64,000 nucleotides of DNA from Burkholderiales bacterium (lineage in GTDB: Bacteria > Pseudomonadota > Gammaproteobacteria > Burkholderiales > SG8-39). Under the pieces are notes generated by a model. The model saw nothing but the letters and a program-made list of their open reading frames with translations. It was not told the origin of the DNA and made no database searches. How positions within the stretch are numbered: the stretch's first letter is position 1; every line of letters begins with the position of its first letter. The translations under genes were made by a program, and so were the position numbers. This document shows, piece after piece, positions 42,582-43,792 of this stretch. The stretch is from positions 2,115-66,114 of the forward strand of contig JALOSW010000006.1 in the NCBI GenBank assembly GCA_025458245.1, in the 5' to 3' direction.

Positions 42582-43792
42582 ATGTCGGACAAGAGCGGCG
42601 GCGAGAAGCTCCTTTACTGCTCCTTCTGCGGCAAGAGCCAGCACGAGGTGCGCAAGCTCATCGCCGGGCCGTCGGTCTTGGGGACAAGTCGGGCAAGTCG
42701 GCGCGCTCCGACCTGCCGACGCCGCGTGAGATCTGCTCGATCCTCGACGAATACGTGATCGGCCAGGACCAGGCGAAGAAGATCCTCTCGGTCGCGGTGT
42801 ACAACCACTACAAGCGGCTGAAGCATCTCTCGAAGTCCGACGAGGTGGAGCTTGCCAAGTCGAACATCCTGCTGATCGGGCCGACGGGTTCGGGCAAGAC
42901 GCTCCTCGCCCAGACGCTCGCGCGCCTCCTGAACGTGCCGTTCGTGATCGCCGACGCGACGACGCTCACCGAGGCGGGCTACGTCGGCGAGGACGTCGAG
43001 AACATCATCCAGAAGCTCCTGCAGAACTGCGACTACGACGTCGACAAGGCAAAGCGCGGCATCGTCTACATCGATGAGATCGACAAAATCTCGAGGAAGA
43101 GCGACAACCCGTCGATCACGCGCGACGTGTCGGGGGAGGGCGTGCAGCAGGCGCTGCTGAAGCTCGTCGAGGGCACCGTGGCATCGGTGCCGCCGCAGGG
43201 CGGGCGCAAGCACCCGAACCAGGACTTCGTACAGGTCGACACGACCAACATCCTGTTCGTCTGCGGCGGCGCGTTCGACGGGCTCGAGAAGATCATCCGC
43301 CAGCGTTCCGAGAAGACCGGGATCGGTTTCGGCGCCGAGGTCAAGAGCCTCAAGAACTCCAAGGACGTCACCGAGATCCTGCGCACCGTCGAGCCCGAGG
43401 ATCTCATCAAATACGGACTGATTCCCGAGTTCGTGGGCCGGCTGCCGGTGCAGGCGACGCTCGAGGAGCTCGACGAGAACGCCCTCATCCAGATCCTGAC
43501 CGAGCCCAAGAACGCGCTGATCAAGCAGTACCAGAAGCTCTTCGCGATGGAAGGCGTGGACCTCGAAGTGCGTCCTCAGGGCCTCATCGCCATCGCGCGG
43601 AAGGCGCTCGCGCGCAAGACCGGCGCGCGCGGCCTGCGCTCGATCCTCGAGCAGGTGCTGCTCGACATCATGTTCGAGCTGCCGACGCTCGAGAACGTGA
43701 GCAAGGTCGTCATCGACGAGCCCACGATCACCGGCGACGGCAAGCCGCTGCTCATCTACTCAGATCAGCCCAAGGTTGCGGGCTCCGCCTGA
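42582..43792 (+). pseudogene. clpX: ClpX unfoldase, with the frame broken inside the N-terminal zinc ribbon at about 42678-42682
   Basis: ATG 42582 gives [32 protein letters not shown], then nonsense to the stop at 42756-42758. The AAA+ body ([29 protein letters not shown]) runs to 43792 in another frame. The second Cys pair is absent. Confidence 0.9.

Follow-up and report, generated by a model that had tools for sequence, protein, structure and literature searches.

A 64,000-nt stretch of DNA from a Burkholderiales bacterium (here called the window; 68.8% G+C, zero N) carries a clpX gene that is broken inside the zinc ribbon of the encoded protein. The question is whether this break belongs to the organism or to the assembly. 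A real break would make this free-living betaproteobacterium, with no ClpX or with a ClpX lacking its N domain, a natural experiment on adaptor-dependent proteolysis. An earlier note on this DNA had described the break from the letters of the sequence and had named an assembly artifact as the alternative. Here the locus is compared with other assemblies of the same population.

Results

The clpX reading frame and its neighbors

The clpX region lies directly downstream of clpP, in a tig-clpP-clpX-lon cluster, and thus has the position of a ClpX gene. A tRNA-Leu gene (40483-40567) stands upstream of tig, and hupB (46520-46792) is followed by genes for tRNA-Val and tRNA-Asp. The four neighbors had been called intact, and their lengths agree with this: tig (434 aa), clpP (41896 to 42561, plus strand; 221 aa), lon (43897-46329; 810 aa), and hupB (90 aa) all match intact relatives. 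ClpP gave a Pfam CLP_protease match at E = 6.6e-89, and the exact ClpP protein of the window was also found on four JGI contigs. On the minus strand directly upstream of tRNA-Leu and tig (37354-40452), a gene of the amine-oxidase family (431 aa) is accompanied by two SQS_PSY genes (277 and 276 aa); going by Pfam names, this trio resembles a set of the hpnC/hpnD/hpnE type, which makes squalene for hopanoids.

Next, the two parts of clpX were characterized. The 5' piece (42582 to 42679, plus strand) consists of codons 1 to 32 and two bases of codon 33, includes the first CxxC (C13 and C16), and is 100% identical to intact contigs up to 42679. The ORF that contains it (42582 to 42758, plus strand) has 58 codons, of which 32 encode ClpX residues and 26 are out of frame; the last codon matching ClpX is GTC at 42675-42677 (V32), and the ORF ends with TGA at 42756-42758. 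In the window, the Pfam zf-C4_ClpX profile was matched over positions 2 to 21 of 39 only (E = 6e-10), which corresponds to half of the zinc ribbon. Instead of the two CxxC pairs of a C4 zinc ribbon, the window therefore encodes the first CxxC only.

The body of clpX (42680 to 43792, plus strand) encodes residues 52 to 421 of the intact protein, followed by the stop codon, in the −1 frame relative to ATG 42582. A tblastn search aligned 42680-43789 with residues 52 to 421 of intact ClpX at 100% identity over 370 aa and placed the two parts of the gene in frames 3 and 2, so that the single continuous frame of a ClpX gene is interrupted at 42679|42680. Pfam analysis of the body called AAA_2 (E = 6.7e-34), AAA, and ClpB_D2-small, and its translation contains Walker A (GPTGSGKT), Walker B, the pore loop GYVG, the RKH loop, and the IGF loop (IGFG). 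The AAA+ module is thus present in full, including the C-terminal small domain.

Candidate starts for this body are few. The ORF called over it (42509 to 43792, plus strand; 427 aa) begins at an ATG inside clpP, and its first 57 residues are out-of-frame junk. ATG 42509, preceded by GAGG at a distance of 9 nt, is the sole ATG in the body frame; TTG does not occur in that frame, and the start-type codon that comes next is GTG 42755. The TGA of the 58-codon ORF (42756-42758) overlaps this GTG as GTGA. The exact product of the 427-aa ORF (P0148) was found among approximately 15 billion proteins on one NCBI contig only, an 81,374-bp sequence that must be the source of the window itself, and the 58-residue fragment was not found in the protein collection. 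A search for a second clpX within the window found none; the sole other match was lon, with weak AAA similarity.

Most of what the earlier note had said of the reading frames is borne out. It had described the frame of ATG 42582 as a ClpX N terminus with the first CxxC that then turns into junk, as residues 1 to 32 and the stop at 42756-42758 show. It had found no CDEC-type motif in any frame, and none is present in the translations of the locus. The only canonical start in the body frame is indeed ATG 42509 inside clpP. The body had been said to resume at about 42683 in another phase and to run to 43792; the phase and the end are correct, and the true position of resumption is 42680.

A 55-bp segment present in near-identical contigs

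Comparison with intact contigs defined the lesion exactly. The clpX junction (site A, 42679 to 42680, plus strand) lacks a 55-bp segment, CATCTGCGACGAGTGCATCGAGCTCTGCAACGACATCATTCGCGAGGAAAGCGCC, which belongs precisely between 42679 and 42680. This segment comprises the third base of codon 33 and codons 34 to 51, including the second Cys pair (Cys35 and Cys38), and its restoration yields an intact 421-aa ClpX in a single frame. The frame changes because 55 equals 18 × 3 + 1. The earlier note was right to see here an internal deletion, short and out of frame, rather than the slip of a single base. The deletion cannot slide by one base, and there is therefore no microhomology at the junction. 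Replication slippage between direct repeats was rejected on the same ground and because the nearest repeats (CGCCGGG and CAAGTCGG) do not properly flank the segment. The segment occurs nowhere else in the window, where no match exceeds 14 nt; its relocation within the window was rejected accordingly.

These results bear on whether clpX might be functionally intact and decoded by programmed frameshifting or translational bypassing, a reading for which the one favorable observation is the placement of the two halves on the same strand in neighboring frames. However, the window nowhere encodes, in any frame, the second Cys pair and the further 16 residues of the segment; the junction has no slippery site, and all relatives encode the segment collinearly. 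With the Cys-pair segment missing from every frame, programmed frameshifting or bypassing was ruled out as a vanishingly improbable explanation.

The intact allele was found in the same population. A look-up of the exact Lon protein led to JGI contig Ga0392393_0001570 (sample 3300037408), which matches the window at 100% identity over 4,728 plus 3,932 bases and has 55 extra bases at 42679/42680. An intact ClpX (P0124), identical to that of the window outside the gap, is encoded on four JGI single-sample contigs (samples 3300037408, 3300037458, and 3300037524); the three of these four that were read are 99.86 to 100% identical to the window over 8 to 19 kb, with the 55 bp present and no other indel. 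The 55 bp are also present in two NCBI MAG contigs of the population (GCA_025490995.1 and GCA_025491015.1), which brings the same-population contigs with the intact segment to six, all 99.8 to 100% identical to the window. By locus, the segment is present in L087/L090, L089, L081/L088/L091, L104, and L105, and a full zf-C4_ClpX domain was called for the intact allele on L081 and L087 to L091.

The search was extended to more distant sequences. In the 90%-identity ClpX cluster (41 members), the listed members are 420 to 424 aa long and contain the full segment, the exception being the 427-aa product of the window. When JGI metagenome contigs (a collection without the sister samples) were scanned with the 30 nt to the left of the junction, five matches were obtained, all from other species and all intact. 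A scan of genome contigs returned, among the matches listed, relatives of ≤82% identity only. Two findings had been put forward in advance as speaking against a genuine break: reads or an amplicon with extra bases after 42677 that restore one frame, and close relatives that share the short junction in frame. The former was obtained in part, as extra bases in six near-identical contigs; the latter was not, as none of the relatives and other assemblies in which the short junction was sought share it. The lesion is thus absent from independent assemblies of the same population, as is characteristic of a local assembly error in a MAG.

An exact match of 80 nt spans the left breakpoint, comprising window positions 42624 to 42679 and the first 24 nt of the missing segment (10729-10808 in the intact locus L091). 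This stretch belongs to the coding sequence of the ClpX zinc ribbon, and other species' contigs (L082 and L084 to L086) that are only 84 to 86% identical overall match it at every base, an unusually strong conservation at the nucleotide level. An exact repeat of at least 80 nt between genomes is therefore a natural trap for assemblers that use a k shorter than the repeat. An attempt to predict the breakpoints by combining the 80-nt stretch with a k = 55 graph placed the left one 56 nt into the stretch and gave no fit for the right one.

Further gaps in the window and in sister assemblies

The comparison was carried along the window, over approximately 58 kb (3363-6810, 7572-28942, and 31896-64000), with NCBI MAG and JGI contigs. 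SNPs amounted to 0 to 0.25%, and there were exactly three indels, all of them deletions in the window. An error in a noisy long-read consensus is unlikely, since no small indels occur in the approximately 58 kb compared. Besides clpX, the deletions affect mfd and an ABC ATPase gene, and no microhomology was found at either junction.

Site B is a private 56-bp deletion at 7644 to 7645 (minus strand) in mfd, which encodes the transcription-repair coupling factor (minus strand, 10365 to about 6969; Pfam UvrB_inter, MFD_D3, CarD_TRCF_RID, DEAD, and Helicase_C). The frame changes from −2 to −3, and residues 908 to 926 are lost. Because the shifted frame stays open in GC-rich DNA, a 1145-aa chimeric product (P0147) was called, and it is now in the public protein collection. 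The missing 56 bp are present in L092 and L093; the comparison at this site comprised two NCBI MAG contigs only. Site C is a private 56-bp deletion at 55483 to 55484 (plus strand) in a gene for a 669-aa double ABC ATPase of a peptide/nickel transporter (plus strand, 54582 to about 56530). Here the frame changes from 3 to 1, residues 303 to 320 are lost, and the gene is split into called products of 356 aa (P0141) and 314 aa (P0146). The segment is present in L098 to L102, L104, and L105; the gap openings seen near 55484 arise where the alignment spills over the 56-bp junction. Like the product of the 427-aa ORF, the 1145-aa Mfd and both ABC halves were each found on a single contig only in the search of about 15 billion proteins.

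The two sister MAGs, which retain the 55-bp segment, have gaps of their own nearby. GCA_025491015.1 (L104) lacks the 50 bp corresponding to window positions 42552-42601, and a ClpP-ClpX protein of 633 aa was called from it (L104 5372-7273). GCA_025490995.1 (L105) lacks the 110 bp corresponding to 42471-42580, and the called ClpP-ClpX protein has 613 aa (L105 5432-7273). Both deletions run across the clpP stop and the clpX start, within the same 260 bp as the lesion of the window; both fusions are in frame, and no microhomology was found at either junction. No two assemblies have a private lesion in common, and the JGI contigs have none. Similar lesions thus recur within one assembly and in its sisters, again as local assembly errors in MAGs do, and the 613- and 633-aa fusions are almost certainly artifacts as well. 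In addition, both sister contigs (JAOQHZ010000222.1 and JAOQIA010003260.1) end at window position 7572 inside mfd, where the contig of the window continues. Since they stop 73 nt past the site B gap, the assembly is uncertain at this stretch in each of the three MAGs.

A protein of this general kind was also seen elsewhere. P0047 (551 aa; SRC, SRR6266571_4837151), from an unrelated soil data set, was called as a fusion of ClpP (residues 19 to 180) with ClpX (residues 43 to 421) that lacks the zinc ribbon. Its join sits at the similar sequences LNEI and CNDII, and chimeric assembly of this same conserved locus may have produced it.

Discussion

Taken together, five lesions of 50, 55, 56, 56, and 110 bp were found, each private to one assembly, each in a conserved gene and without homology at the junction, and all set in otherwise nearly identical sequence. 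This pattern looks like a systematic assembly or joining error, unlike independent mutations. From these sequence comparisons, the 55-bp gap in clpX is very probably a local assembly or contig-joining error private to one public assembly, a reading favored because the lesion of the window is private, because two further 56-bp gaps lie on the same contig, and because the sister MAGs are gapped nearby. The organism belongs to an uncultured soil-type Burkholderiales population, and its own ClpX is most likely an ordinary one, intact at 421 aa and with the C4 zinc ribbon complete. The artifact that the earlier note had named as its alternative is thus favored by the private, recurrent gaps. The consequence drawn in that note, that the cell has either no ClpX or an N-domain-less ClpX if the break is real, probably fails at its condition, given the two private 56-bp gaps in the window and the 50- and 110-bp gaps in the sisters.

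A real deletion in one strain or subpopulation would make clpX a fresh pseudogene that encodes a 58-residue fragment with half a zinc ribbon; functional ClpX would be lacking, and ClpP would rely on ClpA or another partner. The lesion disrupts the frame relative to orthologues, as in a pseudogene; it is clean, and its flanks are 100% identical to the intact allele over 8.7 kb, as for a very recent mutation. Each junction in a contig built from a graph normally has to be backed by reads, and E. coli, like many other bacteria, can do without clpX. However, the single-sample JGI assemblies of the population carry the intact allele only, and the same contig would need recent 56-bp frameshifts in mfd and the ABC ATPase gene. 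In the two sister MAGs, deletions of 50 and 110 bp would have to have arisen independently within the same 260 bp. The narrow size distribution is atypical of spontaneous deletions, which are not of one size, and there is no microhomology at any junction. The recent loss of clpX, mfd, and a transporter ATPase within 64 kb is improbable for a free-living bacterium, and we consider a genuine null allele unlikely. Were the lesions real, at least three independent recent deletions would have struck 260 bp of clpP-clpX in different samples, one a frameshift in the zinc ribbon and two in-frame fusions. Natural selection acting in parallel to inactivate or reshape ClpXP would then be indicated, a reading that we judge very unlikely.

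A variant of the real deletion has an N-domain-less ClpX still being made, either by reinitiation at GTG 42755 or from ATG 42509 inside clpP. E. coli ClpX without its N domain is still an active unfoldase, and both the GTGA overlap and the GAGG upstream of ATG 42509 are there in the sequence. Adaptors, SspB and RssB among them, dock on ClpX at its zinc-binding domain (PMC7226468), and any truncated product would therefore be adaptor blind: ssrA-type substrates could be degraded, and adaptors and substrates that depend on the zinc-binding domain could not be used. Every argument against a real deletion applies here too. Moreover, a start at GTG 42755 would also drop a conserved 14-residue segment that opens the AAA+ large domain, a start at ATG 42509 would add 57 arginine-rich junk residues, and neither start is conserved, the allele being unique. 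We therefore regard such a product as extremely unlikely.

How an assembly error could give gaps of these sizes can be suggested. The default final k of metaSPAdes is 55, and the edges of its graph are 56-mers. If contigs from a de Bruijn graph with a final k of 55 were joined and an overlap of k or k+1 were removed on both sides, 55, 56, or 2 × 55 bases would be lost. Alternatively, scaffold gaps closed up without being filled could lose approximately k bases and leave no homology at the junction. The zinc-ribbon repeat of clpX, at least 80 nt long and carried by co-occurring species, would be a likely break point of the graph, and the JGI assemblies, presumably made with k up to 127, could have read straight through it and so be intact. 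Since k-mers across a junction should all derive from reads in a pure de Bruijn graph contig, either route would require a step after the graph, such as scaffolding, gap closing, merging, or removal of Ns. Overlaps of the largest k minus 1 between the ends of metaSPAdes scaffolds have been described (PMC7111523). We infer overlap removal or unfilled gaps as the mechanism behind the lesions; the 50-bp lesion of GCA_025491015.1 falls outside a k = 55 rule and counts against it.

On this evidence, the clpX gap is most likely not a novel biological feature and is instead a private artifact of one MAG. Its practical importance lies in the recurrence: in 64 kb of one public MAG contig, three genes are broken by gaps of 55 to 56 bp, and the sister MAGs have gaps of 50 and 110 bp. 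These MAG assemblies are therefore an unreliable source of pseudogene counts, fusion proteins, and absence calls, and the 613- and 633-aa ClpP-ClpX calls are already in protein databases. Frameshifts that emerge from scans of this kind should be compared with sibling assemblies before they are interpreted biologically.

The locus can be set beside three known systems. Like canonical bacterial ClpX of the E. coli type, it has the tig-clpP-clpX-lon-hupB order, the first CxxC, and a complete AAA+ body, whereas the window lacks codons 34 to 51 with the second CxxC and has a broken reading frame. Like the engineered ClpX-ΔN (E. coli residues about 62 to 424), it would provide an AAA+ body without a functional zinc-binding domain, if the allele were real and expressed; in contrast to ClpX-ΔN, the window has no natural start at the equivalent position, and the allele is probably not real. 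A third likeness is to the local assembly errors that corrupt gene sequences in unpolished MAGs (Chen, Anantharaman, Shaiber, Eren, and Banfield 2020, PMC7111523). As with those errors, the clpX lesion is seen in a single assembly, damages protein-coding sequence, has counterparts elsewhere on the contig, and sits at a stretch shared with other members of the community. The present case differs in that it is known from sequence comparison, whereas reads are the defining test, and in that its 55- to 56-bp regularity is more specific than the generic description given in that paper.
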